Assembly (NCBI GenBank): GCA_035947355.1
Contig: DASZKF010000293.1
Location: 2,697-66,696, forward strand
Source: Pyrinomonadaceae bacterium
GTDB taxonomy: Bacteria; Acidobacteriota; Blastocatellia; Pyrinomonadales; Pyrinomonadaceae
Direction of reading: 5' to 3'
Length of the DNA stretch: 64,000 bases
Shown here: positions 28,724 through 60,133 of the stretch, in pieces
How positions within the stretch are numbered: position 1 is the stretch's first letter
How the letters are laid out: every line of letters begins with the position of its first letter
Translations under genes and position numbers: made by a program
The notes under the pieces: generated by a model
The model's database searches: none
Seen by the model: only the letters and a program-made list of their open reading frames with translations
What the model was told of the DNA's origin: nothing

Positions 28724-28738
28724 TGGCGCGGCGCTTGC
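28724..28738 (+). promoter_or_regulatory. candidate sigma-54 (-24/-12) promoter
   Basis: TGGCGC-GGCGC-TTGC matches TGGCAC-N5-TTGC, including the GG/GC spacing. It lies 63 nt upstream of the first ORF of the tail-like locus and downstream of the bEBP gene. Confidence 0.5.
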
Positions 28739-30108: not shown

Positions 30109-31818
30109 ATGGCAGAGATGATCCTGCCGGGAGTCTACATCGAGGTGCGGGCCGAGGGGCTCATCGTCCCCGGCCGCGTGACGGTAGGCAACCTGGGCGT
30201 GTTAGGCACGGCGAGCAACGGGCCGGTCGGGGTGCCGGTCATCGTAGGCAGCTACACCGAGGCCCGCGAGCGCTTCGGCGACTTCGACGCCTGGGGCGGC
30301 GGGACGAACAACGAGCTGACGCTGGTGCGCGCCCTCGAACTCGCCTTCGGCCACGGCGCGACGACCGTCTTCGCGCTGCGCGTCAGCTCGCTGGCGGCGA
30401 ACCAGGGGGCGGCGACTTACCTCCTCAGCTCGCCGGGCGGCGACAACGTCACGCTGACGGCGAAGAACCCTGGCACCTGGGGCAACGACCTCCAGGTCAA
30501 CGTCACGGCCGCCGACCAGGACGCCTTCGTCGAAAACGAGACGATTACGGATGACGGGCCTTTCAAATTGGCCTTCCCGCCGGTCGTCGCGAGCGCCCGC
30601 AACCGCGTCCGCCGCCGCATCGCCGCCACCGGCGAGACGCGCTCGCTCGGCATCATCTACGACGACGACCCGGCCGCGCCGGGCCCGAACCAGGTGAAGA
30701 TCAACCGCGCGGACGGGGTCATCACTTTCGGCACGCCCCTGGATGACGACGACATCCTCACCGTCTCCTACGTCGTAGACCGCGCCAGCGCGCGCAAGGT
30801 GACGCTGCGCTACAGGCAGTCGCAGGAGGTCTACACCATCGTGAGCGGCGACGACCTGGTGAGCGAGATCAACCGCAGCCCCGGCGGCTCGGCCCTCGTC
30901 ACGGCCGTGGCCGAGACCAACGCGGGCCAACTGCCCGACTCGTCGGCCGGCCCGAACGCCTTCTCGAACTTCGGCACCGGCACCAACACGCCCGGCGCCA
31001 ACGGCGAGGACGCCGACGCGGGCGACTACCAGGTCGCCCTCAACCTGCTGCTCAACGAGCCGGTGCACATCGTCGTCGCCGCCGGGCAGGACGACAGCTT
31101 CGGCGACGAGCTGAACGCGCACGTCCAGTCGGCCTCGACCGACACGATCAAGGGCGACCGCATCGCGGTGGTCGGCAGCCGCCTCGGCGCGACCGTGGAC
31201 GACCTGCGCGGCCACACGCTCGACAGCGACCGCCTCATCTTCGTCGCGCCCGGCGTGAAGGTGACCGACACCGGCCTCAGGCCGGACGGCACCATCAGCG
31301 GCGACGAGGTGACGCTGCCCGGCGCGTACGCGGCGGCGGCCGTGGCCGGGCTGCTGGCCGGGCTCTCGCCGCACGTCAGCCTGACGAACAAGGTCGTCTC
31401 GATCGGCGGCCTGGAGCGGCGCTTCACGGCGGCCGAGCTGACCCAGCTCGTGCAGAGCCGCGTCTTCGCCCTCGAACAGCGCCAGGGCTTCCGCGTCGTG
31501 AAGGGCATCACGACCTCGACCAACTCGGCCTTCGCGCAGATCACCACCCGGCGCATCGTGGACTTCGCCAAGTACGGCGTGCGCTCGGCGGCCACCCCCT
31601 TCATCGGCCGGCTCAACAACGAGCGGGTGCGCACGGCGCTGCACGGCACGGTCAACCTCTTCCTCGGCGAGATGGTCAACGACGAGATGCTCGTCAGCTA
31701 CGAGCTGGAGGTCACGGCCACGCGCGAGGAGGAGCGGCAGGGCATCGTCCGGGTGAACATGGTGCTCCGTCCCGTGTTCAGCATCGACTTCATCAAGGTC
31801 ACCATGTTCCTCGAATAA
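30109..31818 (+). CDS. contractile tail sheath protein
   Basis: RBS AAGGAGG. N-terminus 'ILPGVYIEV', and C-terminal 'FAL.QRQGFRVVKGITT...RRIVDFAKYGVR' is typical of the phage tail sheath family. 569 aa as a single polypeptide. Confidence 0.9.
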   Translation: MAEMILPGVYIEVRAEGLIVPGRVTVGNLGVLGTASNGPVGVPVIVGSYTEARERFGDFDAWGGGTNNELTLVRALELAFGHGATTVFALRVSSLAANQGAATYLLSSPGGDNVTLTAKNPGTWGNDLQVNVTAADQDAFVENETITDDGPFKLAFPPVVASARNRVRRRIAATGETRSLGIIYDDDPAAPGPNQVKINRADGVITFGTPLDDDDILTVSYVVDRASARKVTLRYRQSQEVYTIVSGDDLVSEINRSPGGSALVTAVAETNAGQLPDSSAGPNAFSNFGTGTNTPGANGEDADAGDYQVALNLLLNEPVHIVVAAGQDDSFGDELNAHVQSASTDTIKGDRIAVVGSRLGATVDDLRGHTLDSDRLIFVAPGVKVTDTGLRPDGTISGDEVTLPGAYAAAAVAGLLAGLSPHVSLTNKVVSIGGLERRFTAAELTQLVQSRVFALEQRQGFRVVKGITTSTNSAFAQITTRRIVDFAKYGVRSAATPFIGRLNNERVRTALHGTVNLFLGEMVNDEMLVSYELEVTATREEERQGIVRVNMVLRPVFSIDFIKVTMFLE

Positions 31819-31831
31819 GGAGAGTACGAGT

Positions 31832-32395
31832 ATGGCAATGACCAACGTCTACACCGGGGCGAACGGGATCCTCGTGTTCATGGCGGCCGGCACCGCCACG
31901 GAGACCGCCGACGCCGACGCCCTGCTCGGAGACCAGATGTACAACCTCTTCGACGTCGGGCGCGTCACCGACGTCGAGGTCTGCGTCAAGACCGAGCTGT
32001 CGGAGTACCACGAGATCGGCCGGCGGCACGCCACTTCGCTCCACCCCGGCAACATCCACGTCAGCGGCAAGGTGGGCCGCGCCTACATCAACGGCGCGCT
32101 CCTCTTCCTGCTGCTCGGGCGCGGCGCGAACCCGAACAACATCGACGAGCCCTACGTCCAGCCGACGCTCCAGATGCAGGTCGTCCTCCAGGACCCGGCC
32201 GTCCCCGAAACGCGCTCGGTGGTGACGATCGAGAACGTGAAGTTCGAGAACTGGTCCTTCGCGCTGCCGGAAGACGACTTCGTGATGGAGAACGTCACGT
32301 TCAAGGCGTTGCGCATCCGCGTGCAGGACGAGGAGGCGCCGTCGCCCGGCGGCGAGCGCGCCGTGAAGACGCCGCAGTTCCCGGAGGCCGGATGA
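31832..32395 (+). CDS. tail tube protein
   Basis: Starts 14 nt after the sheath gene. 187 aa and beta-rich. 'VTDVEVCVKTELSEYHEIGRRH...GNIHVSGKVGRAYINGALL' resembles the tube (gp19/FII-like) pattern. Call based on position and size. Confidence 0.7.
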   Translation: MAMTNVYTGANGILVFMAAGTATETADADALLGDQMYNLFDVGRVTDVEVCVKTELSEYHEIGRRHATSLHPGNIHVSGKVGRAYINGALLFLLLGRGANPNNIDEPYVQPTLQMQVVLQDPAVPETRSVVTIENVKFENWSFALPEDDFVMENVTFKALRIRVQDEEAPSPGGERAVKTPQFPEAG

Positions 32396-32409: not shown

Positions 32410-32877
32410 ATGACGCTGACCGCTGAAGAACTGCTGGCCGGCGGTGCCCTGACCCACGAGGTGGAGGTCCCGCCCGACCTGCTCGGGGCGAACGGCGGCG
32501 GACAGGCCGGCGCGCGGCTGACGCTGCGGCCGCTCACCGTGCGCGACCTCCAGCGCATCGGCCGCGCCGCCCGCGACGACGACGGCCTCTCGGCGGCGCT
32601 GATGATCCAGCAGGCGCTCGTCGAGCCGCCGCTCAAGATGGAGCAGGTCTCGCAACTGCCGGCCGGCCTCGCCCGCTTCCTCGTCGAGCGCATCAACGCC
32701 ATCAGCGGCGTGAGCACGCCGCGCGGCGAGCTGGAGGAACTCGTCCAGGCGCCGCTCGCCAAAGCCTGCTTCGTCCTCGCGAAGGAGTTCGGCTGGACGC
32801 CCGAGCAGGTCAGCGGGATGACCATCGGTCAGATCCTGCTCTACCTGCAAATGGCCGACGGGGGGGATGGCGCATGA
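32410..32877 (+). CDS. tail assembly chaperone-like protein (gpE/gpG analogue)
   Basis: 'ARLTLRPLTVRDLQRI' resembles the conserved chaperone motif. Its position between the tube gene and the tape-measure slot fits. A G7 run lies just before the stop. Confidence 0.5.
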   Translation: MTLTAEELLAGGALTHEVEVPPDLLGANGGGQAGARLTLRPLTVRDLQRIGRAARDDDGLSAALMIQQALVEPPLKMEQVSQLPAGLARFLVERINAISGVSTPRGELEELVQAPLAKACFVLAKEFGWTPEQVSGMTIGQILLYLQMADGGDGA

Positions 32878-34214
32878 GTGCGCGCGCGCTCAACGCGCTC
32901 GCCGCGGGCCGGGCCCCGGCCTGCTGGCGGCGGGAGACGGCGCGGGAGGCCGCGAGGCCGGGCGCGCTGCGGCGCGCCTGCGCCTGGGTCGCGGAGTCGG
33001 CCCCGCCCGTCAGGCTGCGCGCGGAGCCACTCTTCGGCTCCTGCCTGTCTTCATTCGCGAGCGGCGACGGCCGCGCGGCCGACCCGCCGCAGGCCGTCCC
33101 CTGCTCGCCCCGGCCCGCGGGCGCGACTCCCGACGACCCGCCTCAGCGGCCCGCACCTTTCTCGTGCGCGCACGGCGACGCGAAGCCGGCGCCGCCCGAG
33201 TTGCCCGAGCGGGCAGACCGCGAACTGCTCTGCCGGCTGGCGGGCGAGGAGACACGACCGGCCGACTCCGCGAAATCCACGCGGCGCGAGTCGGAAGTTT
33301 GCCACCCTGAGCCGCGCCCGCGCGCGCGCCGCGCCGCCGCGCCCGAGTGCGGGGCCTCGGGACCCAGACCTTCGCCTCCGCCCGAGCCGCCACGGCCCGC
33401 GCGGGACGTGCGTCCGCAGTCCCGCCCGGCCGACCTGTGTGACGCGACACGTTCGGCCTCGGCGCAGAGCCGCTGGCGGGACGAATTGAGCGGGCGCACG
33501 CGCCGCGTACTGGCGCGCGCGGGGTCGCCGCCGGCGGCGGCCGACGCGCGCGAGGAGAAGCCCTTCGACGGACTCTGGGCTCAGCCGGTCGCGGCAGGGC
33601 CGGAGGCCCCGCCCGGGCTGTTGAGCAACCTGGTCAACCCTCCGCGCTCGACCGAACCGGCCGCCCGCGACGAACGCGTCCCGGCCGGTAGAAGGAAGCC
33701 TGTCAACCCGGCGGACTCCGAGCCCCCCGCACGACGCACCAGGCCGCCCCTGACCCAAGAGGGGGCGGGTCTCGCCTCGTCCGAACGGTTCGCCGCCCCG
33801 GGCGTCGGAAGTGCGAACGGCGCACCGGCACCGCGCAGGCATTCGCACGCGTCGGCCGCGGCCGGAGCGGCGCGTGCGCCCGCTCAAGCAGACGGCCCGC
33901 CGCACGGGCACCGGCGGGCCGTCACTCCGGAGGGGGAGTATCTGGGGCCGCTGCGTGGCGTCTTAGACACGCAGGCGGCGGACGACGACGCCGAAGGTTT
34001 GTGGGCCAGAGGCGGCGACCCGCCCGCGCTCGCCGCGCAGTTGCCGCCGCTGATCCCGGCCCCGGCCGGCTGGCCCGCGCCCGGCGTCGCCTCGGCGGCG
34101 GCCCGGCAGGGCGCGCGCGACGAGGCCGCCGCCGACGAAGACCTTGAGGCGCTGGCGGCGAAGATCAGACGCATCCTCGAAGAGGACGCGCGCCGCCACG
34201 GGATTGACGTTTAG
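32874..34214 (+). CDS. Pro/Ala/Arg-rich low-complexity protein occupying the tape-measure slot
   Basis: ATGA overlap with the chaperone gene. 446 aa, the only ORF spanning the interval with consistently GC-rich third positions. Ends in the amphipathic 'DEDLEALAAKIRRILEEDARRHGIDV'. Confidence 0.45.
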   Translation: MSARALNALAAGRAPACWRRETAREAARPGALRRACAWVAESAPPVRLRAEPLFGSCLSSFASGDGRAADPPQAVPCSPRPAGATPDDPPQRPAPFSCAHGDAKPAPPELPERADRELLCRLAGEETRPADSAKSTRRESEVCHPEPRPRARRAAAPECGASGPRPSPPPEPPRPARDVRPQSRPADLCDATRSASAQSRWRDELSGRTRRVLARAGSPPAAADAREEKPFDGLWAQPVAAGPEAPPGLLSNLVNPPRSTEPAARDERVPAGRRKPVNPADSEPPARRTRPPLTQEGAGLASSERFAAPGVGSANGAPAPRRHSHASAAAGAARAPAQADGPPHGHRRAVTPEGEYLGPLRGVLDTQAADDDAEGLWARGGDPPALAAQLPPLIPAPAGWPAPGVASAAARQGARDEAAADEDLEALAAKIRRILEEDARRHGIDV

Positions 34215-34262: not shown

Positions 34263-34787
34263 ATGCGACCGATGCTCGACGACATCGAGCTGCCGCAGGT
34301 GCAGGAGATCGCCACGCTTGAGCGCCGCGTCCTCGCCGAGCACAAGCCGCCCGGCATGTCCGGCAGCCTCTTGCAGGACATGGGGCGGCGCCCCGCGCGT
34401 CTCACCCTGTGGGGCGTCGCCACCGGCCCCGAGGCGCGCGCCTTCGTCGAGAAGCTCGACGAGAAGTTCCGGGCCGCGGCGCCCGTCCCCTTCGTCGGCG
34501 ACATCGTGGCCGACGCCGACATCGAGCGGGTGGTGATCGAGAACCTGCGCGTGCAGGACCTCGCGGGCAAGCCCGAGCGCTTCGCCTACGTGCTCACCCT
34601 GCGCGAGTTCGTCGAGCCGGTCGCGGCGGAAGACCTCTCGCCGCTCGACGAGAGCATCGCCGGCGACGCGCTGGGCCTGATGGACAACCTCGTCAACGGC
34701 TTCGAGATCGTCGAGCGGCTCTCGGCCTTCGTGGGGCGCTTGACCGAACTGAATGAGGCCCTGCGGCGCCTGGCGAACCAGCCGTAG
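34263..34787 (+). CDS. hub/tube-initiator-like protein (Mu gp43 / Afp7 N-domain-like), short paralog
   Basis: ATG at 34263 after GGGAGGTGAGG. 'MLDDIELPQVQEI...LAEHKPPGMSGSLLQDMGRRPARLTLWGV...PVPFVGDIV...LAGKPERFAYVLTLREF' is clearly paralogous to the N-terminus of 35249..37120. Confidence 0.5.
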   Translation: MRPMLDDIELPQVQEIATLERRVLAEHKPPGMSGSLLQDMGRRPARLTLWGVATGPEARAFVEKLDEKFRAAAPVPFVGDIVADADIERVVIENLRVQDLAGKPERFAYVLTLREFVEPVAAEDLSPLDESIAGDALGLMDNLVNGFEIVERLSAFVGRLTELNEALRRLANQP

Positions 34788-34812
34788 CGGCCGCCCGATG
34801 AGGGGGAGGACG

Positions 34813-35202
34813 ATGGAAGAGAACGTTCTGGAGAAACTCAAAGAGGCGCTGCAAGAGCTTTCCACCCTGCTCGACGACCCGGCGGTGCAGACGGCCATCC
34901 GGGCCGTCCCCGACGCGATCATGGACCCCGTCGTCGGGGGGCTCAAGACCGTGCTCAACGTCATCAAGGACGCGCTCAAAGAGTTGAAGAACAGCCTCGG
35001 CAGCGTCACGGCGCTCGAAGACCTCCTCAAGACGGTCAACGACCTGCTGGCGGCGGCCGAGGGGCTGGCGCCGGGGCAGAAGGGCACGCTCAACACGGTC
35101 AAGACCATCGTCAAGACGCTTCAGGACCTGCCCGGCATCGCCGACATCGAGGAGATATTGACCCTCATCGGCCAACTCGTCGCCAAGCTGGAGGCGCTCT
35201 GA
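34813..35202 (+). CDS. small all-helical Leu/Lys/Asp-rich hypothetical protein
   Basis: ATG at 34813 after AGGGGGAGGA. 129 aa with heptad-like 'LKEALQELSTLL...LKTVLNVIKDALKELKNSL...VKTIVKTLQDL'. Confidence 0.45.
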   Translation: MEENVLEKLKEALQELSTLLDDPAVQTAIRAVPDAIMDPVVGGLKTVLNVIKDALKELKNSLGSVTALEDLLKTVNDLLAAAEGLAPGQKGTLNTVKTIVKTLQDLPGIADIEEILTLIGQLVAKLEAL

Positions 35203-35248
35203 AGCCGGGCGGCCCGCGCCGGCGACGCGCGGGCGGAGAACGAGTCGT

Positions 35249-37120
35249 ATGGCGCGTCCCATACTCGACGACATCGAGCTGGAGCAGGCGCAGGAGATCG
35301 AGGTCGAGGAGGAGCACGTCCTGGCGCAGCACTCGATTCCCGCGCTGGCGACCGACTTCCTCCAGCGCCTCGACCGCCGCGCGCTGCGCGTCACCCTCCA
35401 GGGCGTCCTGACGGGCGAGGGGGTGCGCGAGCGGCTCGAGCGGCTGCGCGAGAAGTACCGCGCCACCCAGCCCGTCCCCTTCGTCTCGGACGTGACGACG
35501 GCGACGAAGGTCGAGAAGGTCTTGATCGAGGAGCTGGGCGTCCGCGAGCTGGCCGGGAAGCCCGCGCGCTTCGAGTACGCCTTCACCCTGCGCGAGTTCA
35601 TCCCGCCGCCCGAGCCCGTGGTCGTGCCGCCGCCGCCCGTCCCGCCCAGGCCGCCCGTCGAGACGGGCACGCTCGTCGTCGAGGTGACGGTCGAGGGCGA
35701 GCCGGACTTCGACTTCGGCACGGTGACGGTGACGGCCGAGGGGCGGCAGGACGACGGCACGCAGCTCTCGCGCGAGCTGCGCAACCGCGCCGGGAACGTC
35801 TGGACGGAGGAGGTGATGCCGCCGGGGCAGTACACGGCGACGGCGGTCGTCACCGACCCCGAGGAGATGTCGGGGTCGGCCGCGGGCGGGGTGCGCGCGG
35901 CCGAGACGACCGTGCTGCAAATCACGCTGCGGCGCGGGACGGGCATCGCCAAGGCGTTCATCATCCACTTCCGCTTCGACAGCGCCTTCCTCGAGCCGTG
36001 CATGAGCGAGGTGCTGGGGCGCGTCTTCACCTACGCGCAGTCGCACCCGAACGAGAAGGTCGTCGTCGTCGGCCACACCGACCTGACCGGCTCGGACAAC
36101 TACAACCAGGCGCTCTCGGAGCGGCGCGCGCGCTCCGTCTTCGCCTGCCTCACCTTCGGCTCCAACGACGCGCTGCGCGCCTCGGCCCTCGCGGACTGGA
36201 ACGAGCTGCGGAAGAAGAGGGTGGCCCCCCCGAACGCGCCCACCATCAACGACACCTGGGCGACGCGCGAGTACCAGTACATGCTCCAGGAGCTGGAGTA
36301 CTACTCGGGCAACATAGACGAGAAGCACGGGCCGAAGACCGACGACGCCGTGCGCAGATTCCAGTCTGACAACGGCCTGCAGCAGACCGGCCAGGTGAAC
36401 GAAGACACCTGGCCCAAACTCATCGAGGCGTACCTCGGGGCCGTCGCGCTGGCCTTCCCTGAAGACCGCTTCCTGCGCAACGCGAAGGGCGGCTGCGACG
36501 GCGGCACCCTGAAGTGGCTCGGCTGCGGCGAGAAGGACCCGGTGAGGAATACGGAGGACGCCTGGCGGCCCAACCGCCGCACCGAAATCCTCTTCGTCCG
36601 CGTCGCCGAGCTGCCCTGCGAGGTGCCGCAGCCCTTCACCTTCGACCTGCCGGGGCCGGGGGCGGTGGCGGGCAGTTGGTGTCTGGGGCCAGGCGACCCC
36701 AACCAACGCTGCTGCTTCCTCACGCGCCAGAGCGAGCAGCCGAACAAGCTGCTGGTCAGGCCGGCCGAGCCGAACAAGGCGGTCGTCAGCGGCGTCGTGA
36801 CCTTCGACGACGGGTCGCCCGTCGCCAACCAGAAGTACGCGCTCATCGCGCCCGACGGCGAGTTCCTGCACACCGACGCGAACGGCAAACCGGACCTCGG
36901 CGAAAGGCCCTCGGGGCCGCAGAGGGGCCGCCCCATCCCGCAGCGCACGGACGAGGCCGGGCGCTTCAGCCACCCGCGCCAGACGCCGGTCGGCGTCTAC
37001 ATCCTGGAGCTGCTCGAACTGGGCGAGGCGACGGGCGAGACGACGCTGGTCGCGCGCGCCTCCGAGGAGCCGCCGCAGGAGGCGATAGGCAACGTGGTCT
37101 GCTTCACACTGGACGGTTGA
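35249..37120 (+). CDS. hub/tube-initiator-like protein fused to OmpA-like, PG_binding_1 and CarboxypepD_reg-like domains
   Basis: N-terminal ~125 aa are paralogous to 34263..34787. OmpA_C-like block 'FRFDSAFLEP...VVVVGHTDLTGSDNYNQALSERRARSV'. PG_binding_1 block 'YQYMLQELEYYSGNIDEKHGPKTDDAVRRFQSDNGLQQTGQVNEDTW'. C-terminal 'VSGVVTFDDGSPVANQKYALIAPDG...TDEAGRFS'. Confidence 0.7.
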   Translation: MARPILDDIELEQAQEIEVEEEHVLAQHSIPALATDFLQRLDRRALRVTLQGVLTGEGVRERLERLREKYRATQPVPFVSDVTTATKVEKVLIEELGVRELAGKPARFEYAFTLREFIPPPEPVVVPPPPVPPRPPVETGTLVVEVTVEGEPDFDFGTVTVTAEGRQDDGTQLSRELRNRAGNVWTEEVMPPGQYTATAVVTDPEEMSGSAAGGVRAAETTVLQITLRRGTGIAKAFIIHFRFDSAFLEPCMSEVLGRVFTYAQSHPNEKVVVVGHTDLTGSDNYNQALSERRARSVFACLTFGSNDALRASALADWNELRKKRVAPPNAPTINDTWATREYQYMLQELEYYSGNIDEKHGPKTDDAVRRFQSDNGLQQTGQVNEDTWPKLIEAYLGAVALAFPEDRFLRNAKGGCDGGTLKWLGCGEKDPVRNTEDAWRPNRRTEILFVRVAELPCEVPQPFTFDLPGPGAVAGSWCLGPGDPNQRCCFLTRQSEQPNKLLVRPAEPNKAVVSGVVTFDDGSPVANQKYALIAPDGEFLHTDANGKPDLGERPSGPQRGRPIPQRTDEAGRFSHPRQTPVGVYILELLELGEATGETTLVARASEEPPQEAIGNVVCFTLDG

Positions 37121-37158: not shown

Positions 37159-40100
37159 ATGAGCGGCACGAACGCGAACATCGGCGGGGCCGGATTCGAC
37201 TCAGTGGCGGGGGGGCTGCTGGCCGAAGGGCTGCTGGCGAAGGGCCAGCCGGCCGGCGCCGTCGTGCACCGCCAGCGCGCCGCGCCCGTCGCCGTCAACC
37301 CGACCATCACGGCGGCGCGCACCGTCGTCCTCGTCAAGCACACGCACACGACCCCCGCGAGGGTGAAGATCACGCTCAAGACGAGCCGACACTTCACCAG
37401 GGCCGGCACGCTCAGCCGCGTCGTCACGCCCACGAGCGGGGAGATTAAACTGTTCGACAAGGGCGGCGCCGAGATCGTCTTCACCAACTCGGAGCGCACC
37501 TTCACGGCCAAAGAGCTGTCCGTCGGCTTCGACCTGTTCGCCGAGGGCGTGAAGGCCAGCGGGAACCTCGACGACTTCACCCTCCGCCTGACTCTGGCGC
37601 CGGGGCCGACGCCCGTCGGCCCGCCGGCCGAGGTGAAGCTGACGGCCGTCGAACTGACGCTCGACGTCAGCCCGCCGCGCACCCCGCCCGCGCCCTTCGC
37701 CCCGCTGCCGCAGCCCCCGGCGGCCAAGCCCCCGGCGAACCCGCCGCCCAAAGACAAGTGGTTCGGCGGCGCCGTCGTCAGCGTCCAGGACGCCGGCAAC
37801 AACCAGCCGCGCGCGCAGCTCGTCGTCCGGCAGGTAAAGCCGAGCGGGTTCGCCGGGAAGCTCGTGCTGCGCCAGGCGGGCGTCGTCAACGACAAAGTCA
37901 CCAGCGCGGTGAACAGGGCGAAGCTCTTCGCGGACGAGGTGCCCGGCCCGAAGCGTAAGCCGCCCGCGAAGGAGTCGCCGCAACCGAACCCGTTCGTCTT
38001 CGACGCCGCCTCGGCCAACTCCCCGGCCGGGCGACAGTTCTTCGTCGAGGGCGCGTCGGCCAGTTCCGCACTGCGCGACGTGGCCTTCCAACTCGGCATC
38101 CAGAACGTCGAGAACGACGGCGACCGCGTCGCCCTGACGGTCGTCGCGGCCCCCGTGCTCGCCGCCGACTCGCCGGTCGTGGTGGTGAAGAAGGCGCACC
38201 TCAAGCTGAAGCGGCGCCTGATTACGGCCCGCGCGAGCGGCGCCTTCGGCGGGACGGGGAAGCTCACGCGCTCGGGCGCCGGCCCCATCCGGCTCTTCGA
38301 TAAGGCCGACGGGGGCAAGGAGGTAGACCTCTCGGGGGCGGGGCGGACGCTGACGGCCAACGAGCTGTCGAACGGCCTCCAACTCTTCGCCGAGAGCGTC
38401 CTGCCGAGCGGGAAGTCCGAAGACTACCAGCTCACGCTGACCCTCGTGCCGAAGCCGACCGGCGGCCTGCCCGTCGGGGCGCCGGCCACCCTCAAGATGA
38501 CGGCGGTCGAGGTGGCGCTCGACGTGGCCCAGAAGCGCACCGCGCCCGGCGTAGACCCGCCCCTGCTCTCGGCCGAAGACAAGATCAAGAAGGGGCGCTT
38601 CCTGCGCGTGCAGGACGCCAAGTTCAACTCGGCGCGCGCGATGCTCATCGTCCGCAAGCCGAAGCCCGGCGACTTCAAGGGCGAACTCGAGGTCGCGCGG
38701 CTCAAGAGCGACACGAAGAAGCAGGTCAGACTCTTCAAGGGCACGGAGGAGATCGCGGCCGCCGGCCAGACGCCCCTCACCGAGCCGGTCACGCTCAAGC
38801 CCGCCGACTTCGCCGCGGGCGACGTGAAGCTGTTCGCCGAGGGCGCGGTCAAGAGCAGCACGGAGCGCGAGACCGGCTTCACCCTCGCCGTCAAGGATGT
38901 CGAGCCCGAGGCCGACAAGGTGCTGATGACCGTGCGGGCGAACGTCAAGGCCAAGGGCAAGCTCTTCTGGAACCGGACGTGGGAATACAACACCGCGCCG
39001 AAGCTCCCCGCGACGGCCTCCATCCCCGCCGTCAAAGAGTTCCTGCCGGGGGCGAAGGTCGAGGTGCGCATCCAGCGGCCGGGGGCGGCCGACCTCACCG
39101 TCTTCCAGACCATCACGACCAAGGACGGCGCGAAGGTGACCGACCCGCACGGCGCCTTCGAGATTGTCGACCTGCCGGAGACGCCGAAGGCGGCGCTGCG
39201 CGTCCTGCTCGAATACCGCGACGCCAAGGTGGTCAACGTCCAGGGCGAGTCGGACCACATCGCCCAAGCCGACTTCGAGGTCAAGAAGGACAAGGTCGTC
39301 TTCCACCAGTTCGACCTCGACCTCTCGAAGCTGAACGAGAAGACGGTCGAGCTCGACTTCGGCGAGGTCGAAATCAAGAAGGCCAAGTTCGCGGAGATGT
39401 GCGACGCCTACAAGAGCATCTGGTTCGGGCACCACAAGCTCAAGGAGCTGACCGGCTTCGACGCCGACCTCTGCACCATCAGGTTCCCGGCCACCGGCGC
39501 GGTGTCGTTCCAGCGCGGCGCCGCGGTCGTCATCCTCGACGGCGACCTGAAAGACCGCGACGTGCTCCTGCACGAGTACGGGCACTTCGTCGCCGCGAAA
39601 ATCGGCAACATACCCAACCACCCCGAATACCTCTACAACGACACGCCGAAGCACGGCAGGGACACCAAAGAGCACTACGAGGCGGCGTGGCTCGAAGGGC
39701 CGGCGACCTTCCTCGCCTGCGCGCTCCAGAACGACGCGATCTACCACGACGGGTACGACGCGAACGTGACCTTCAACCTCGGCACGGATAACACGACCGT
39801 CGGCCCGCACGCCGAGGGGAGCATCCAGGAAGCCTTTTGGCGGATGCTCAAGGTTCACAAGCTCGACTTCAAGACCGGCTACTGGAAGGCGTTCACCGAC
39901 AAGTCCAAGCGCGCGAAGATCAACAACGTCTTCGAGTTCTTCGACAACTGGAAAGACCTGAAGCTCGCGGGCCTCAACCTCGTGCTCGAATCCTTCAAGC
40001 GGTTCAACATGGAGTTCGGCTACAAGTACCTTTCGGGCGCGGACAGGTTCAAGGCCGTCGCCCCGCCGAAGACGTTCAGCGAGGCCGCCAAGGAGTTCCG

Positions 40101-40296
40101 GACGATTGACGAGTTGTTCAACCACTTCGGGACGCTCGGCGGCGGGACGCTGGCCGACTACAAGGAGGAGTTCTACAACCGCAACAAGTTCTTCGCGGGC
40201 GGGGGCGCGATGGACACGGGTTCGAGCCACACCAACCCCAAAGTCGTGGTCAACAACTTCTACATCATCCCCCAACGCTTCCAGGTCAAGGTGTGA
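37159..40296 (+). CDS. large modular protein with C-terminal HExxH (HEYGH) putative zinc-peptidase domain; candidate cargo/toxin
   Basis: ATG at 37159. The N-terminal ~600 aa consist of two alternating module types, paralogous to 40802..43585. The unique Lys/Asn/Phe-rich C-terminal ~440 aa carries 'VLLHEYGHFV' at nt 39571-39585 and a downstream 'AAWLEGPATF'. Confidence 0.6.
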   Translation: MSGTNANIGGAGFDSVAGGLLAEGLLAKGQPAGAVVHRQRAAPVAVNPTITAARTVVLVKHTHTTPARVKITLKTSRHFTRAGTLSRVVTPTSGEIKLFDKGGAEIVFTNSERTFTAKELSVGFDLFAEGVKASGNLDDFTLRLTLAPGPTPVGPPAEVKLTAVELTLDVSPPRTPPAPFAPLPQPPAAKPPANPPPKDKWFGGAVVSVQDAGNNQPRAQLVVRQVKPSGFAGKLVLRQAGVVNDKVTSAVNRAKLFADEVPGPKRKPPAKESPQPNPFVFDAASANSPAGRQFFVEGASASSALRDVAFQLGIQNVENDGDRVALTVVAAPVLAADSPVVVVKKAHLKLKRRLITARASGAFGGTGKLTRSGAGPIRLFDKADGGKEVDLSGAGRTLTANELSNGLQLFAESVLPSGKSEDYQLTLTLVPKPTGGLPVGAPATLKMTAVEVALDVAQKRTAPGVDPPLLSAEDKIKKGRFLRVQDAKFNSARAMLIVRKPKPGDFKGELEVARLKSDTKKQVRLFKGTEEIAAAGQTPLTEPVTLKPADFAAGDVKLFAEGAVKSSTERETGFTLAVKDVEPEADKVLMTVRANVKAKGKLFWNRTWEYNTAPKLPATASIPAVKEFLPGAKVEVRIQRPGAADLTVFQTITTKDGAKVTDPHGAFEIVDLPETPKAALRVLLEYRDAKVVNVQGESDHIAQADFEVKKDKVVFHQFDLDLSKLNEKTVELDFGEVEIKKAKFAEMCDAYKSIWFGHHKLKELTGFDADLCTIRFPATGAVSFQRGAAVVILDGDLKDRDVLLHEYGHFVAAKIGNIPNHPEYLYNDTPKHGRDTKEHYEAAWLEGPATFLACALQNDAIYHDGYDANVTFNLGTDNTTVGPHAEGSIQEAFWRMLKVHKLDFKTGYWKAFTDKSKRAKINNVFEFFDNWKDLKLAGLNLVLESFKRFNMEFGYKYLSGADRFKAVAPPKTFSEAAKEFRTIDELFNHFGTLGGGTLADYKEEFYNRNKFFAGGGAMDTGSSHTNPKVVVNNFYIIPQRFQVKV

Positions 40297-40801: not shown

Positions 40802-43585
40802 ATGAGCAGCACGCACATCGAAAAGTCGGGACTCGGCTCGGTGCCGGACGGGCTCCTGGCGCAGACCCCCGCCGGGCAGGCCGACGCGGTCGTGCATCGC
40901 CAGCGCCCTGCCCCGACGCCCATCGACCCGACGATCAAGGCCGACCAGACGCTCGTCGTCGTCAAGCGCCCGCACACGAGCCCCAAGAGGGTGAAGATCA
41001 CGGTCAAAACGAGCCGGCGCTTCACCAGGGACGGCACGCTCACGCTCGTCACCACGCCCACCAGCGGGGAGATCGCTTTCTTCACGACCGAGAAGGGCCA
41101 GAAGCAGTTCGTCTTCACCAACTCGCAGCGCACCTTCACCGCCACCGAGCTGTCCAAAGGCGTAGACATGTTCGCGGAGGGCGTGAGCCCGAGCAGCAAC
41201 CTCGGCGAGTTCCGCCTCGTCCTGACGCTCGCGCCGGGGCCGACGCCCGTCGGCCCGGACGCCGAGGTGGCGCTGACGGCCGTCCGGCTGTCCCTCAGCC
41301 TGAGCCCGCCGCGGGCCGGCTCCGGCGCGCCGTTCACGCCGCTGCCGGAGCCTCCACCCCCGCCCCCGCCCGCGGGCTCCAACGACAAGTGGTTCGGCGG
41401 GGCCGTCGTCAACGCCCAGGACACGGGCAACAGCCAGCCGCGCGCTCTGCTCGTGGTCGGCCAGGTGATCCCGACGGCCTTCGCCGGCGACCTCGTCCTG
41501 CGGCAGGTGAGCGTCGCGAACAACATCATCACCGGCCGCGCCGACCGCGTCCGACTCTTCGACGACGAGACGCCCGGCCCCCGGCAGACGCCGCCCGTCA
41601 ACGAGGCGCCGCACCCCACCCTGCTCGTCTTCAACGCCACCGACGCCGACTCCGCCGTCGGCCGGCGGTTCTTCGTCGAGGGCGTCACGCCCAGCGCCGC
41701 CCTGCGCGACACGGGGTTCCAGCTCGGCATCAACGGCGTGGAGGACGACGGCGACCGCGTCGCCCTCGCCGTCGCGGTCGCGCCGGTGGTCTCCGTGGAC
41801 TCGCCCATCGTCGTCGTCAGGAAGGCCCACACGACGCCCGCGCGCCGGGTGGTGACGCTGCGCACGAGCGGCGCCTTCAGCGGGACGGGCACGCTCACGC
41901 GCTCGACGACCGGCCCCGTCCGCATCTTCGACAGCGCGAGCGGCACGACCGAAGTTGACCTCTCCGGCGCGGGCCGCACCTTCGCCGGCGATCAGTTGAG
42001 TTCGACCGAAGGGGTGCGGGTCTTCGCCGAGAGCGTGCTCGCGAGCGGCAGCCTGAACGACTACACGCTCACCTTGACATTGACGGGCGGCCAAGCCCCG
42101 GTCGGCTCGCCGGCCACACTCTCCCTGACCGCCGTCGAATTCACACTGGACATATTTCATCCGCGCGCCGTGCCGGGCGCGAATCCGCCCGCGCTCGCGG
42201 GCACCGACAAGATAGACCCGGGGCGGTTTCTACAACTCCGAAACCCGGCGAACAGTCACACCCGGGCGAAGATCGTCGTTCGCCGCCCGAACCCGCTCGT
42301 CAGCGTCACGCTGGAGCTGTCGCCGGTCAACAATCAGGTGCGCGCGTTCACGTCCGAGGTGCCCGGCGCGGGGCAGACCCAACTCTCCAACCCCCATACG
42401 ATCCTTACCAGCCTCATCCCGCCGGGCGGGGCGGAGTTCTTCGTCGAGGGGATCTCGTTCAGCGGCGCGGCCCGCGATACGGGGTATCGGCTCGGCATTC
42501 AGGGCCTGGAGAATGAGGCTGACCGGGTCGTCGTCACGGTCTTCAATTTGGACGTGGTGAGTAACGTTTTCCCGTTCGGGACGGCCGTCGAGCCCGTGCA
42601 GATCGAGGGCATTTTGAACGCCTCCCTCTCCGGCTTCAGAATCAGCAACCTCATCGGGACCCAGTCGAACTCCCTCTTCAGGGCGCGCGTCGAGATGCCC
42701 GGCTTCCCCGGCAACTCTATCCAGGCCATGCTGGTCAGCACGGCGACGCCGGCCGAACTGCCACAGCCCATTAATCTGTTCCGCAACAGCGGCGATAGAT
42801 TCCTGTCGCGCCCCATCCTGGCGATCCCCGAAGCCATACTTCGTGCCGGCATCACGTTCGGAGCCCCACAGGAGCTCGACGTGGTTCGCGCCCGGGCCGG
42901 CGGCACGTTCCGGCTGGACTTGGCCGGGTCCTTCTCCGGCGCGGGCGTCAGGCTCGTCCGGGTGCGCGGTCGCGTAGTCAACATTGCCGCGCAGGCTTTC
43001 ATCAACACGAACATTGACCTCGCGGCCATCCGGCGACACATCCGGCGCGCCAACCAACTGTGGGCGCAGGCCGGCATCGAGGTGAAAGAGCGCAGCGCCG
43101 CCGCCCCCGTGGCCCACCCCTCGGGACTCAACGACATAGATTTCACCCTCCCCTTCGCCAGCACGCTCACCACCAAGGAGCGGCGGCTGCTGGGTCTGCT
43201 CCCTAACGGCCCGTCCCGGAGTGCCGTGTTGAGGGACATGAACGTCTACTACGTGCGCCGGATTAACGGGCCGCCCGCCGGCGTCGCCTACAGCGGGGAG
43301 AGCTACCCCGGACTGATCGCCGACCCCAACAACACGGCGATTGCGATTGAAGGGCCGGTCATCTCAGACCTGGGCCTGGCCCACGAACTCGGACACCACT
43401 TCCTGCGCGCCTGGGGCGACGAACACAAGGATCAGACGGCGACGCCCCCGACCGACTGGCCGGCGGCCAACATCATGCACCCGGCCGATACGGGCACCGC
43501 GACGACGATAGACAGAACGCAGGTGCTCAACATCCTGAACGGGACGAGCGGCGGCAACCACCCCTGCATCGTCTTTGAGCCTTGA
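40802..43585 (+). CDS. large modular protein with a different C-terminal HExxH (HELGH) domain; candidate cargo/toxin
   Basis: The N-terminal ~600 aa are collinear with 37159..40296 (for example 'AVVHRQR.AP....PTI.A..T.V.VK..HT.P.RVKIT.KTSR.FTR.GTL', 'DKWFGGAVV..QD.GN.QPRA.LVV.QV', 'FFVEG...S.ALRD..FQLGI..VE.DGDRVAL.V'). The unique C-terminus carries 'ANQLWAQAGIEV' and 'LGLAHELGHHFLRAWGDEH' (nt 43382-43396). Confidence 0.6.
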   Translation: MSSTHIEKSGLGSVPDGLLAQTPAGQADAVVHRQRPAPTPIDPTIKADQTLVVVKRPHTSPKRVKITVKTSRRFTRDGTLTLVTTPTSGEIAFFTTEKGQKQFVFTNSQRTFTATELSKGVDMFAEGVSPSSNLGEFRLVLTLAPGPTPVGPDAEVALTAVRLSLSLSPPRAGSGAPFTPLPEPPPPPPPAGSNDKWFGGAVVNAQDTGNSQPRALLVVGQVIPTAFAGDLVLRQVSVANNIITGRADRVRLFDDETPGPRQTPPVNEAPHPTLLVFNATDADSAVGRRFFVEGVTPSAALRDTGFQLGINGVEDDGDRVALAVAVAPVVSVDSPIVVVRKAHTTPARRVVTLRTSGAFSGTGTLTRSTTGPVRIFDSASGTTEVDLSGAGRTFAGDQLSSTEGVRVFAESVLASGSLNDYTLTLTLTGGQAPVGSPATLSLTAVEFTLDIFHPRAVPGANPPALAGTDKIDPGRFLQLRNPANSHTRAKIVVRRPNPLVSVTLELSPVNNQVRAFTSEVPGAGQTQLSNPHTILTSLIPPGGAEFFVEGISFSGAARDTGYRLGIQGLENEADRVVVTVFNLDVVSNVFPFGTAVEPVQIEGILNASLSGFRISNLIGTQSNSLFRARVEMPGFPGNSIQAMLVSTATPAELPQPINLFRNSGDRFLSRPILAIPEAILRAGITFGAPQELDVVRARAGGTFRLDLAGSFSGAGVRLVRVRGRVVNIAAQAFINTNIDLAAIRRHIRRANQLWAQAGIEVKERSAAAPVAHPSGLNDIDFTLPFASTLTTKERRLLGLLPNGPSRSAVLRDMNVYYVRRINGPPAGVAYSGESYPGLIADPNNTAIAIEGPVISDLGLAHELGHHFLRAWGDEHKDQTATPPTDWPAANIMHPADTGTATTIDRTQVLNILNGTSGGNHPCIVFEP

Positions 43586-43596
43586 TCGGGGAAGAC

Positions 43597-44085
43597 ATGT
43601 CTGAAGAGACGGCACGAGAGGTGCGACGACTTTTGACGCCTACCGACGACGTGAACGGCTGGCTGCGGAGAGTCAGGGCGTTGGACGCGGACGAGGCGCT
43701 CCCTTTGCTCTTAGCAATCCTGGGCGGCGCGCAGGAGTCGCCGGGGGATCGTTTACAGGCCGCTTTAGTCCTGGGGTATCTACGCGACCCGCGCGCCGTC
43801 GGCACCCTCGTCGAAGCGATGCAAGCGGCCGACCCCGTCATGCGCGCCCAGGCCGCCGAGTCGCTGGGGCTGATCGGGGCCGCGGAAGAGAGGGTGCTCC
43901 GGCAGTTGATCCAAGGGCTTAACGACGAAGACTACTTCGTCCGGGAGTGCAGCGCGAAGGCGCTGGGACGTTTGGGGAGTCCCGAAGCCGCCCCCCACCT
44001 GGAACGGATGAGTGCCGCCGATCCGGTCGCGAGCAACCGTGAGGCGGCGCAAAGGGCCGTCGAGTCGTTGCGGGGGAGCGCTTAG
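43597..44085 (+). CDS. HEAT/PBS-lyase-type repeat protein following the second HExxH protein (possible immunity protein)
   Basis: Three or four 'D(P/E)..VR..AA.(S/A)LG.(L/I)G' units (DPRAVGTLVEAM, DPVMRAQAAESLGLIG, DEDYFVRECSAKALGRLG). Nearly abuts the preceding stop. Confidence 0.7.
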   Translation: MSEETAREVRRLLTPTDDVNGWLRRVRALDADEALPLLLAILGGAQESPGDRLQAALVLGYLRDPRAVGTLVEAMQAADPVMRAQAAESLGLIGAAEERVLRQLIQGLNDEDYFVRECSAKALGRLGSPEAAPHLERMSAADPVASNREAAQRAVESLRGSA

Positions 44086-44089
44086 ACTT

Positions 44090-45112
44090 ATGCTCAGTCC
44101 GGCCTACAAACTGACCGTCGGGCGCAAGGTCGTTGACACCACGGACGAGCCGCGCGCGAGCACCGTCGTCGAGCTGTCGGTGCGCCTCGACCTCGACACG
44201 CCTCTGGACGACTGCAAGCTCGTCCTCGGCAACGTCGGCGGCGTCAGGCCGGCCGTCGGCGACGAGGCGAAGGTCGAGCTGGGCTACGCGGACGACGACG
44301 GCGGGCTGACGCAGGTCATGGAGGGGACGGTCGTCTCGTCCGAGCCCGGCCTGACGACCACGCGCGTCCTCGTGGACGGCGGGGCGGCGGCGCTTTTGCG
44401 CACCTTCGTCGAGCAGACCTACGAGGGCAAGACCGCGGGCGCCATCGTCCGCGACCTGGCCGGCAAGGCGGGCGTGCGCGTGGCGGCCGCCGGCGACGGC
44501 ATCAAGTTCCCGGCCTACGTCGTCGACGGCCGGCGCAGCGTCTACCGGCACATGCGCGACCTGGCCGACCTCAGCGGCTTCGACCTCTACGTCAACGCCG
44601 ACGGCGAACTCGCGTTCGAAGAGTTCGTCGGCGGGAAGGCCGTGCACGTCTTCGAGTTCGCCAAGCACGTCGTGGCCCTCGAAGTGACGCGGGCCGAGCC
44701 GCTGGCCGGGCGGGTCGAGGCGTGGGGCGAGAGCCCGACGGGGAGCGAGGGCGACGACGCGTGGGCGTGGCTGACCAAGGACTTCACGCGCTCGCGCGGG
44801 AAGGCCGGCGACGGCCCACTCCTGCTGCTGGAGCGGCCGGCGCTGCGCACGACCGAGGCGGCGCGCACGGCCGCGCAGGCGGCGCTGACGGCCATCCGGC
44901 GGCGGACGCTGCGCGGGCGCGTGCTGACCATCGGGCGGCCGCAGGTCAAGCTCGGCGACGCCATCCGCCTGCGCGGGATGGCCGACGAGTCGCTGAACAC
45001 GAACTTCCAGGTGCGGAGCGTCGAGCACCGCATCACCAAGCGCGGGGGCTTCACGACGGCCGTCGGCTTCCGCGCCATCGAGGCCCCGGCCGCGGCCGGG
45101 CTCGGCGCGTAA
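44090..45112 (+). CDS. baseplate hub protein, phage late control gpD / gp27-like
   Basis: 'AYKLTVGRKVVD...', 'DEAKVELGYADDDGGLTQVMEGTV', and C-terminal 'NFQVRSVEHRITKRGGFTTAV' are typical of the gpD family. Located directly upstream of gpV. Confidence 0.8.
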   Translation: MLSPAYKLTVGRKVVDTTDEPRASTVVELSVRLDLDTPLDDCKLVLGNVGGVRPAVGDEAKVELGYADDDGGLTQVMEGTVVSSEPGLTTTRVLVDGGAAALLRTFVEQTYEGKTAGAIVRDLAGKAGVRVAAAGDGIKFPAYVVDGRRSVYRHMRDLADLSGFDLYVNADGELAFEEFVGGKAVHVFEFAKHVVALEVTRAEPLAGRVEAWGESPTGSEGDDAWAWLTKDFTRSRGKAGDGPLLLLERPALRTTEAARTAAQAALTAIRRRTLRGRVLTIGRPQVKLGDAIRLRGMADESLNTNFQVRSVEHRITKRGGFTTAVGFRAIEAPAAAGLGA

Positions 45113-45137: not shown

Positions 45138-45938
45138 GTGAGCATCGTCAACACCATTCAGCAGATCGTGCGGCAGGAGCTGGGCCGCGTCCGCGTCGCG
45201 GAGCTGGGGCTGGTCGAGGAGGTCTACCCGCACAAGGCCGACGGCGACTCGGACAACTACGCCTGCGACGTGCGCCTGAAGAACAGCGGCCTGCTGCTCA
45301 AGCGCGTGCCCGTCGCGACCGGACACATCGGCACGGTCGCCATCCCGAACAAGGGCGACCTGGTGCTGCTCGCCTTCGACAAGGGGGACGTCAACCAGCC
45401 GATCGTCATCGGGCGCCTCTACAACGAGAAGGACCGCCCGCCGCTCAACGAGCCCGACGAGGTCATCTTCCGCCTGCCGCTCGCCGAGGCCGACGAGAAG
45501 ACGATCAAGGCCGCCATCCGCAACCACCAGTCCGACTCGCCGCCGCGCGAACTCGTCTTCGAGATGCCGCCCAAGATCACCGTGCGCGTCACCGACGGCA
45601 CCGTGCGCGCGACGGCCGGGAGGACCGAGATGAAGCTCGACCAGCCGGACGGGAGCGGCGGGACGGTCACCATCCTGGCCGGGCGGACGAAGATCACGAT
45701 GAACCAGGACGGCGACCTGACGGTCGAGGCGGCCGGCGCGATGACGCTCAAGGCGACACGCGACCTGACGCTCGAAGGCTTGAACGTCACCGTCAAGGGG
45801 CAGATGAAAACCTCGATCGAGGCCGGGACGGAGGCGGCCCTTAAGGGCAACGTCGGCGCGACCGTCCAAGGCGGCGTCTCCTCGACCGTGCAGGGGGCGA
45901 CCCTCAGCCTCAAGGGGCTCACCTCGTTCTCGCCTTGA
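45138..45938 (+). CDS. baseplate spike, gpV/gp5 OB-fold family
   Basis: GTG start. 'GLVEEVYPH...YACDVRLKNSGLLLKRVPVATGHIG..AIPNKGDLVLLAFDKGDVNQPIVIGRLYN' is the gpV OB fold. C-terminal beta-helix-like repeats follow. Confidence 0.85.
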   Translation: MSIVNTIQQIVRQELGRVRVAELGLVEEVYPHKADGDSDNYACDVRLKNSGLLLKRVPVATGHIGTVAIPNKGDLVLLAFDKGDVNQPIVIGRLYNEKDRPPLNEPDEVIFRLPLAEADEKTIKAAIRNHQSDSPPRELVFEMPPKITVRVTDGTVRATAGRTEMKLDQPDGSGGTVTILAGRTKITMNQDGDLTVEAAGAMTLKATRDLTLEGLNVTVKGQMKTSIEAGTEAALKGNVGATVQGGVSSTVQGATLSLKGLTSFSP

Positions 45939-60119: not shown

Positions 60120-60133
60120 TGAGGAGTACGAGA

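Follow-up and report, generated by a model that had tools for sequence, protein, structure and literature searches.

A tube-initiator paralog with a nested OmpA-like/PG_binding_1 trunk, a candidate effector carrier in headless contractile-tail gene clusters

We analyzed a 64,000-nucleotide (nt) stretch of the genome of a Pyrinomonadaceae bacterium of the phylum Acidobacteriota (GenBank assembly GCA_035947355.1, contig DASZKF010000293.1, positions 2,697 to 66,696 of the forward strand), hereafter called the window. A contractile-tail gene cluster occupies its + strand from ~29.1 to 53.7 kb, and we focus here on two paralogous genes of this cluster, short and long, which are separated by a gene for a small helical protein and followed by those of two large putative cargo proteins. 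From its N to its C terminus, the long paralog consists of a tube-like domain, a proline-rich linker, a beta-sandwich, an OmpA-like domain with a nested PG_binding_1 domain, and a second beta-sandwich. The features, all on the + strand, are as follows (aa, amino acids; AF2, AlphaFold2).

34263..34787, + strand: short paralog, 174 aa, with a tube-like N-domain (aa 1-116) and a long C-terminal helix (aa 126-171)
34813..35202, + strand: small all-helical protein, 129 aa, between the two paralogs
35249..37120, + strand: long paralog, 623 aa, the "trunk" of its family
35249..35602, + strand: tube-like N-domain of the long paralog (aa 1-118), of the DNA_circ_N/tube-initiator class by Foldseek and by PF07157 matches in orthologs
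35660..35938, + strand: first beta-sandwich, CarboxypepD_reg-like (aa ~138-230), from AF2 strands at 140-229 and PF13620 matches in orthologs
35945..36160, + strand: OmpA-like domain, part 1 (aa ~233-304), with the peptidoglycan-binding motif, from the Pfam OmpA match
36161..36484, + strand: insertion in the OmpA-like domain, containing PG_binding_1 (aa ~305-412), from Pfam, an excision test, and Foldseek
36485..36604, + strand: OmpA-like domain, part 2 (aa ~413-452), LKWLGCGE...PNRRTEILF, from the OmpA profile after excision
36731..37117, + strand: C-terminal beta-rich domain (aa ~495-623), from AF2 and PF13620 matches in orthologs
37159..40296, + strand: putative cargo 1, 1045 aa, with an HEYGH motif; relatives have fused extensions homologous to its N-terminal ~575 aa
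40802..43585, + strand: putative cargo 2, 927 aa, with an HELGHH motif; it shares the cargo N-domain, and its C-terminal module is homologous to a fusion in locus L001

The N-domains of the two paralogs align without gaps and are identical at 61 of 116 positions (53%; BLASTP, E=3e-36), which bears out the paralogy noticed in a preliminary description of the stretch made from its letters alone. We compared 16 loci, of which L001-L004 have precomputed Pfam tables and L005-L016 are the informative ones among 80 loci from a genome scan with OmpA-motif patterns, most of the others being generic OmpA genes. Across the 16 loci, identities within the short family (~46-69%) and within the long family (49-67%) mostly exceed those between paralogs (~39-54%), and the duplication must therefore be older than the spread of the cluster. 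Mean column identity is 70% in the short family and 46% in the long one.

The fold of the two N-domains points to the tube-initiator class. AF2 models of the long and short paralogs have mean pLDDT values of 85.7 and 80.8, respectively, and the short one is modeled as a tube-like domain followed by a single 45-residue helix, so that it looks like a conventional tube initiator with the layout of P2 gpU. Its best Foldseek matches in the PDB are baseplate tube initiators, namely, those of phiCD508, Mu (gp43), diffocin, 7-7-1, phi812, the Photorhabdus virulence cassette (PVC), E217, and Pam3, and it also matches the initiator of Pa193. Over ~120 N-terminal columns, the long paralog matches chains 0 and u of the Mu baseplate (9ki1), the initiators of cyanophage A-1(L), diffocin, phiCD508, PVC (6j0n_b), pyocin R2 (6u5b_g), and SPP1 Dit, with a Foldseek probability of 1.0 for Mu, A-1(L), diffocin, PVC, and the pyocin; judging from their lengths (446 and 419 residues), the two Mu chains would be gp43. 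Structure matches of both paralogs in BFVD comprise LysM-tail, Dit-like, DUF6046, and DNA-circularization proteins. At the sequence level, 36 of the long paralog's 46 orthologs match DNA_circ_N (PF07157) at E≤0.01, and four that were scanned individually exceed its 21-bit cutoff (L005, 22.9 bits; P0294, 23.5; P0300, 28.0; P0344, 25.5), and one ortholog also matches Phage_P2_GpU weakly. The only Pfam match to an N-domain in the window's own copies is a weak one of the short paralog to DUF6046 (20.6 bits versus a cutoff of 27.4), and 16 of 39 members of the short family share such weak matches; a search of PDB sequences with the short-family profile returned only spurious WD40 matches. The link to DNA_circ_N thus comes from the orthologs' Pfam matches together with the fold matches, and these support the assignment of both N-domains as tube-initiator-class (BH1) modules, a class that the preliminary description had already suggested.

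Behind its N-domain, the long paralog matches Pfam OmpA (PF00691) over aa 241-302 (nt 35969-36154; 42.4 bits versus a cutoff of 27.2) and PG_binding_1 (PF01471) over aa 340-390 (nt 36266-36418; 56.5 bits versus a cutoff of 23), and PG_binding_1 is present in all 46 orthologs. Both domains had been recognized at these places before and were then taken to be consecutive; they prove instead to be nested. The OmpA match on the intact protein halts at position 65 of the 98 of the profile, and it extends over positions 2-89, with a score of 51.8 bits, once aa 305-412 are excised. In addition, complete OmpA-like domains aligned by Foldseek (5u1h and 4g4v; TMt 0.70-0.77) span ~215 columns of the query. 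Since the end of the OmpA profile (LKWLGCGE...PNRRTEILF) lies after PG_binding_1, and given the excision result and the Foldseek span, we conclude that PG_binding_1 is inserted in the OmpA-like domain, whose structural matches are the C-domains of OprF, Pal, and PorE. Searches of NCBIfam and of PDB sequences agree with these assignments, the long-family profile finding only OmpA and PG_binding chains in the PDB. We did not see a nested PG_binding_1 domain outside the family in 68 generic OmpA loci; one of the scanned loci, L059, seemed to be a second case because its OmpA match appeared to enter an insertion, and it proved to be an ordinary OmpA lipoprotein of 245 aa. A CarboxypepD_reg-like sandwich had been noted after PG_binding_1 and is indeed present in the AF2 model and in orthologs, but a second one precedes the OmpA-like domain: the model has beta-rich domains on both sides, and CarboxypepD_reg (PF13620) is found at E≤0.01 in 25 of the 46 orthologs, over the sandwiches before and after OmpA. 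On the window's own long paralog, CarboxypepD_reg has no match at E≤0.01.

In OmpA/Pal domains, the ligand is contacted by the Asp of an (H/N)TD motif and by the Arg of NxxLSxxRAxxVxxxL. The corresponding predicted motif of the long paralog reads GHTD278 and N286-QA-L-S-ER-R293-A-RS-V-FAC-L. Rather than being degenerate, D278, N286, L289, and R293 are invariant in the 46 sequences, in which S290 and A294 are at least 90% conserved; in part 2 of the domain, R440, R443, and R444 are invariant and N442 is at least 90% conserved. As noticed before, the N terminus is acidic (net charge of -8 over the first 25 residues), and the protein contains no signal peptide, lipobox, or transmembrane helix (highest 19-residue Kyte-Doolittle mean, 0.97). 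LysM, as stated in the preliminary description, is absent: it is matched in none of the Pfam scans of cluster proteins, including the product of 45952-46284, which was scanned as 110 aa, and it is annotated in none of the precomputed Pfam tables of L001-L004.

Five cysteines of the long paralog (C251, C416, C478, C489, and C618) are at least 90% conserved despite the lack of an export signal in the protein; they may be joined in disulfides once it is released, or they may be metal ligands. The PG_binding_1 insertion has two of them, C251 and C416, on either side of its base.

All 16 loci have the short paralog, the helical protein, and the long paralog as a conserved trio in this order; the loci come from no fewer than eight groups of phylum level (Acidobacteriota, Chloroflexota, Cyanobacteria, Actinomycetota, Gemmatimonadota, Desulfuromonadales, Chromatiales, and Vulcanimicrobiota) and include Thermoanaerobaculia, Anaerolineae/Chloroflexia, Oscillatoria, Blastococcus, other Actinomycetota, and Longimicrobium. 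A chaperone and a tape-measure slot precede the trio in 16/16 loci, and the hub, the spike, a 110-aa protein, W, J, and I come after it wherever the contig reaches. The helical protein, seen previously as wedged between the paralogs, is therefore a positionally conserved component; it is matched by tblastn in 5 loci, open reading frames (ORFs) of 138-142 aa fill its slot in other loci, and its weak, subthreshold PHROG matches are to tail, tape-measure, and hub proteins. It could be a BH1a-like filler or a detached equivalent of the helix-rich domain of Mu gp43. More than 200 full-length relatives of the long paralog share 48-77% identity with it. A word-indexed search with the short paralog retrieved 965 clusters at E≤1e-5, the best 120 of these 965 being 165-184 aa long, and there is one short copy per locus in the 16 loci. 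The relatives are annotated, if at all, as "hypothetical," "OmpA family," or "peptidoglycan-binding protein." Among phages, the N-domain found no tblastn match in 50,697 INPHARED records, and a relative was likewise missing from 2.9 million IMG/VR contigs.

Many relatives of the long paralog continue well beyond the trunk. When read through to the stop codon, long-paralog ORFs measure from 624 to 2089 aa across loci, and those of L005, L008-L010, and L012-L014 run in frame past the C-terminal beta-rich domain. An exhaustive phmmer search with the N-domain gave 459 representatives of 50%-identity clusters at E≤1e-3 (73 at E≤1e-30), the best of which mostly have 1,000-2,000 aa. Among the best 150 of the 459, the OmpA trunk is present in 76, and 67 of these 76 have at least 300 further residues, with the N-domain of the window's cargo in 36 of the 67 and the C-domain of cargo 2 in 13. 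The last 350 aa of the extended representatives fall into 16 sequence clusters. Domains fused to the trunk include protein-arginine deiminase (PAD), phospholipase D (PLD), a PETase-like alpha/beta-hydrolase, a calcineurin-like phosphoesterase (Metallophos), and Reprolysin-like zincins. The deiminase is complete (PAD_M plus PAD), with E values of 5.8e-97 and 3.3e-91 in the two tube-initiator/OmpA proteins concerned (L005, 9992-13846, and P0295); as a candidate effector activity of a bacterial injection system, it is unusual. Some loci have two or three long copies with differing tails and only one short copy.

The 623-aa protein of the window is thus the bare, toxin-less form of the trunk, the minimal form of its family, and it is followed by two large proteins that have no Pfam match. 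Cargo 1 and cargo 2 have in common their N-terminal ~575 aa (54% identity) and differ in their C termini. The region after the trunk in L008, L010, L012, and L014 is homologous to this N-terminal part, and the C-terminal HELGH module of cargo 2 is related to a module on the OmpA/PG_binding protein of L001 (29% identity, E=5e-24). Judging from these homologies, the two proteins appear to be detached equivalents of the relatives' fused extensions. Since relatives fuse the trunk to homologs of both, a Rosetta-stone argument makes it probable that the two proteins dock onto the window's trunk.

In three loci (L001, 5397-9517; L003, 10001-14462; L004, 10001-14289), two ORFs encode the long paralog, which is interrupted within the first beta-sandwich: a protein of 209-214 aa has the tube-like domain and most of that sandwich, and a protein of 1162-1279 aa opens with the last sandwich strands, followed by OmpA/PG_binding and a zincin-like end. 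Between these ORFs, there is an overlap of 4 nt in L001 and of 8 nt in L003 and a gap of ~150 nt in L004. This arrangement suggests reassembly by strand complementation. Locus L004 also has an extra stand-alone OmpA/PG_binding_1 protein of 370 aa (16215-17327), located between hub and spike, with 52% identity to the trunk module and without a tube-like domain.

One of the nearest counterparts of the long paralog is gp43 of phage Mu. It is also called protein N or "DNA circularization protein," and its N terminus corresponds to Pfam DNA_circ_N. As a tube initiator, gp43 is hexameric; its tube-like domain nucleates the tube, and its helix-rich C-terminal domain holds a LysM and clamps the wedges (PMC11915804). 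Gp43 also enters the host with the DNA and acts there (PMC11915804), a precedent for an initiator with a postejection job. Both proteins are encoded in the slot that follows the tape-measure protein and precedes the hub, share the fold of the N-domain, and have a peptidoglycan-binding module in their C-terminal region. However, Mu has a single copy, in contrast to the two paralogs and the small helical protein found here; the C-terminal part of the long paralog is built from sandwich, OmpA-like domain with nested PG_binding_1, and sandwich instead of a helix-rich LysM domain; no significant sequence similarity links the two proteins; and the window system lacks head genes. The preliminary description had assigned the paralogs to the slot of Mu gp43, P2 gpX, or Afp7, and this assignment is right for Mu gp43 and Afp7 but imprecise for gpX, a LysM "glue" encoded separately from the P2 initiator, gpU, which ends in a C-terminal helix (preprint 10.64898/2026.09.14.750843) and whose layout the short paralog resembles. 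Nor is LysM the rule for this component, as was thought, since Pam3, XM1, and E217 have a small "BH1a" protein in its place (PMC11915804). The two paralogs have in common with Afp7/Pvc7, pyocin R2, and P2 gpU plus gpX that a tube-like initiator is combined with a module of the peptidoglycan-binding type where hub and wedges meet, with fold matches of the long paralog to the PVC and pyocin chains; in those systems, the module is a LysM, fused or in a separate protein of 67 aa. The window cluster further differs from the Afp/PVC extracellular contractile injection systems (eCIS) in that none of its proteins scanned with Pfam, PHROGs, and NCBIfam is an AAA+ ATPase of that type, a DUF4255 cap, or a gp19-family tube; the sole AAA+ protein among the scanned window proteins is a sigma-54 activator. 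We found no C-terminal effector fusions to the initiators of Afp7/Pvc7, pyocin R2, or P2 in the literature searched, and to our knowledge none are known. Duplication of the tube-like module for a hub-to-tube adaptor has parallels in T4 gp48/gp54 and Pvc5/Pvc7, which are paralogous tube-like rings stacked between hub and tube; we know of no OmpA, PG_binding_1, or enzyme fusions in these proteins.

In its logic, the family resembles the "evolved" VgrG, Hcp, and PAAR proteins found in type VI secretion systems (T6SS), which likewise combine a structural N-terminal module with polymorphic C-terminal enzymes, occur in several differently tipped copies per locus, and alternate between fused and separate cargo. 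Here, however, the putative carrier is not the spike, the spike tip, or the tube but a tube initiator, an obligatory peptidoglycan-binding trunk lies between carrier and toxin, and the machine is not a T6SS. We therefore lean, with some reserve, toward the view of the long paralog as a tube-initiator paralog that carries effectors or docks them, in a headless, Mu/P2-ordered injection cluster. Drawn from the paralogy, folds, domain identities, intact motif, synteny, and fusions, all of which are shown by the analysis, such a mechanism would run as follows. The short paralog probably forms a conventional initiator ring, and the long paralog would enter the hub/initiator stack via its own tube-like domain, so that trunk and cargo would surround the hub at the site that other systems fill with LysM or BH1a. 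Before firing, the trunk may also serve as a hub-wedge "glue." Contraction would then drive the hub-initiator-tube assembly, with the long paralog coejected, into the envelope of a target cell, where the OmpA/PG_binding module most plausibly grips peptidoglycan and so keeps tip and cargo at the wall. In the window, the bare trunk would do so with the two separate cargo proteins that probably dock onto it.

Several points weigh against this proposal. The evidence for the role of the long paralog is wholly computational, and the window's own copy is the toxin-less form. Six copies of a 600- to 2000-aa protein around the hub would be a large load to push through an envelope. Clustering at 50% identity overrepresents variable long forms relative to trunk-only forms, and the statement that most relatives are extended therefore holds for the representatives and not necessarily for genomes. 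As for the N-domains, neither of the window's two copies matches DNA_circ_N at E≤0.01 or reaches the Pfam thresholds, the Foldseek E values of the short paralog are modest (2e-3 and weaker), and neither family profile aligns significantly with the Mu gp43 sequence in hhalign (Prob 0.1). Finally, on a particle that is assembled in the cytoplasm, a folded OmpA/PG_binding module might never encounter peptidoglycan and could have a structural role only, which is the usual assumption for LysM.

This last point leads to the strongest of the other explanations, which we consider unlikely, though deserving of real weight: the OmpA/PG_binding/sandwich trunk would never bind peptidoglycan and would only fill the space between hub and wedges, like LysM in Mu gp43 and Pvc7 or BH1a in Pam3 and E217, with the enzyme fusions riding on the scaffold. 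LysM domains and BH1a proteins do act as hub-wedge glue in solved baseplates (PMC11915804; preprint 10.64898/2026.09.14.750843), the trunk comes after a tube-like domain just as LysM-bearing domains do, and the particle is presumably assembled in the cytoplasm because there is no export signal. A mere filler would not, however, be expected to keep D278, R293, and the NxxLSxxRA motif invariant across phyla in a protein as variable as this one, and the recurrence of three unrelated peptidoglycan-binding folds at one position (LysM elsewhere, OmpA-like and PG_binding_1 here) would argue for selection on wall binding itself. Of the options raised in the preliminary description, wall recognition in the target and structural reuse like that of LysM both stand.

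A further scenario, which we regard as improbable, concerns the architecture of the ring and is a variant of it rather than a functional alternative. The paralogs could form one 3+3 heterohexamer as an adaptor between the trimeric hub and the six-fold tube, or the long paralog could replace one to three of the short subunits. P2 gpU takes two conformations that bridge C3 and C6 symmetry (preprint 10.64898/2026.09.14.750843), the ring-forming domains have retained their 53% identity, the combination of several long copies with a single short copy resembles the interchangeable VgrG/PAAR subunits of the T6SS, and substoichiometric mounting would relieve the steric load of 1000- to 2000-aa extensions. 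Yet, the general precedent is that of stacked homohexameric rings made from paralogs (T4 gp48/gp54, Pvc7/Pvc5), and the strong separate conservation of the families, of the short one above all, is compatible with distinct rings.

An equally improbable option is that the trunk anchors the machine to the producer's own wall, either before firing in the manner of a T6SS, which is the least likely of the three options in the preliminary description, or after firing outward or into the producer's own envelope, as proposed for the cytoplasmic contractile injection systems (CIS) of Streptomyces. It is true that membrane complexes of the T6SS are anchored by OmpA-like domains (PMC13584744), that members of the family are found in diderms as well as in monoderms, among them Blastococcus and further Actinomycetota, and that cytoplasmic, self-directed CIS are known in Actinomycetota (PMC12237407), but the domain follows a core baseplate module in a protein without an export signal, and hence should be cytoplasmic before firing, no membrane-complex genes were seen in the cluster scans, and the fused domains (PLD, lipase-like, protease, and PAD) resemble offensive effectors, all of which makes this idea of the preliminary description a doubtful one. 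Although the OmpA-like fold and the intact canonical motif are shared with TssL/TagL, Pal, the OmpA C-domain, and MotB, those proteins are exported or membrane anchored, unlike the long paralog, which stands behind a baseplate module. A T6SS membrane anchor (the long form of TssL, or TagL) was rejected for the lack of a hydrophobic segment, TIGR03350 giving only a weak, partial match (25.3 bits versus 139.8) that is caused by the OmpA motif.

If the long paralog is an effector carrier, the family suggests a new site for mounting cargo on a CIS, through covalent or docked attachment to a tube-initiator paralog. Such a site is relevant to the engineering of CIS protein delivery, with natural payloads that include a protein-arginine deiminase and a phospholipase D. 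The family also makes testable the unsettled question of whether LysM in contractile-tail baseplates is a glue or a wall binder, in that two unrelated peptidoglycan-binding folds with invariant ligand-contact residues stand at the position of LysM. The parts are known, namely, tube initiators, peptidoglycan-binding domains, and structural proteins with toxin tails; their combination and the carrier are new. The literature searched on contractile injection systems together with OmpA, PG_binding_1, tube initiators, arginine deiminase, and CIS lineages does not describe this architecture, the nearest matches by topic being T6SS accessory genes and a different Geobacter eCIS, neither of which describes it either. 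The cluster type represents an unstudied lineage in soil and aquatic Acidobacteriota, Chloroflexota, Cyanobacteria, Actinomycetota, Gemmatimonadota, and Proteobacteria. As a more tentative extension, possible but some way from our working view, these clusters could form a phylum-spanning class of headless CIS in which a tube-initiator ring is the cargo carrier and a peptidoglycan-gripping trunk with interchangeable toxins tethers enzymes at the wall or in the periplasm of the struck cell; the convergence of LysM, OmpA, and PG_binding_1 would then mean that wall binding is selected in contractile-tail penetration generally.

The remaining genes of the cluster are the following.

cluster start, + strand: 303-aa protein with a weak tail-terminator PHROG match
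30109-31818, + strand: sheath
31832-32395, + strand: tube
32410-32877, + strand: tail assembly chaperone
32874..34214, + strand: tape-measure-slot protein, 446 aa, rich in proline, alanine, and arginine, from tblastn against the slot proteins of L001-L004
40293-40775, + strand: 160-aa protein
43582-44085, + strand: HEAT-repeat protein
44090..45112, + strand: gpD/Mu gp44-like baseplate hub, from PHROG baseplate hub and tail matches and NCBIfam VgrG_rel
45138..45938, + strand: gpV/VgrG-like spike, from Pfam Phage_base_V and NCBIfam VgrG families
45952-46284, + strand: conserved Gly/Pro-rich protein, 110 aa, between spike and gp25
downstream of the 110-aa protein, + strand: gp25/W and J
48422-53695, + strand: gpI-like wedge protein, 1757 aa

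The window thus has the order sheath, tube, chaperone, tape-measure slot, short paralog, helical protein, long paralog, (cargo), hub, spike, W, J, and I, which is the order of gp39-gp48 in the annotated Mu record. We found no head, portal, or terminase genes in the cluster or its flanks. On one side, the flank contains genes for a MacB/FtsX transporter, a beta-lactamase, ketoacyl synthases, and HMG-CoA reductase and, on the other, a sigma-54 activator, a toxin-antitoxin pair, a tetratricopeptide repeat protein, and a response regulator; the flanks are chromosomal functions in L002-L004 as well. A prophage or complete myophage tail was ruled out by the chromosomal flanks, the lack of head genes, and the lack of phage or IMG/VR relatives, and the cluster is a domesticated, headless tail cluster.

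Some of its genes call for comment. The protein of the tape-measure slot is of low complexity and not a long helical tape measure, and it is conserved across phyla only at an N-terminal segment (...LRRACAWV...PLFGSCL) and at its C terminus (EDLEALAAKIRRILEEDARRHGIDV). The hub has an ortholog with a faint Phage_GPD match. The 110-aa protein encoded after the spike has no Pfam match and 65-79% identity across phyla, and its position suggests a PAAR-like spike tip. The gpI-like protein contains many internal repeats, which appear as multiple offset tblastn matches in every locus; no separate tail-fiber gene was recognized in the window cluster, and this protein may double as a fiber or receptor-binding array. 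The 160-aa protein and the HEAT-repeat protein, encoded next to the putative cargo genes, might be chaperone or immunity partners.

A sigma-54 enhancer-binding activator is encoded directly upstream of the tail cluster (27054-28469), and between this gene and the first tail gene lies TGGCGCGGCGCTTGC (28724-28738, + strand), which is the single place in the window that agrees with TGGCAC-N5-TTGC when no more than one mismatch is allowed. The number of such matches is not significant window-wide (2.67 expected); the position of the site is suggestive of sigma-54 control of the cluster. At the other end, just downstream of the cluster and of a gene for a 1464-aa beta-propeller/helix-hairpin-helix protein (54690-59084), a Gp49/HigB-like toxin and a helix-turn-helix antitoxin are encoded (59787-60451) where the guanine-plus-cytosine content, ~70% in the window, falls to ~58% (~60-62 kb).

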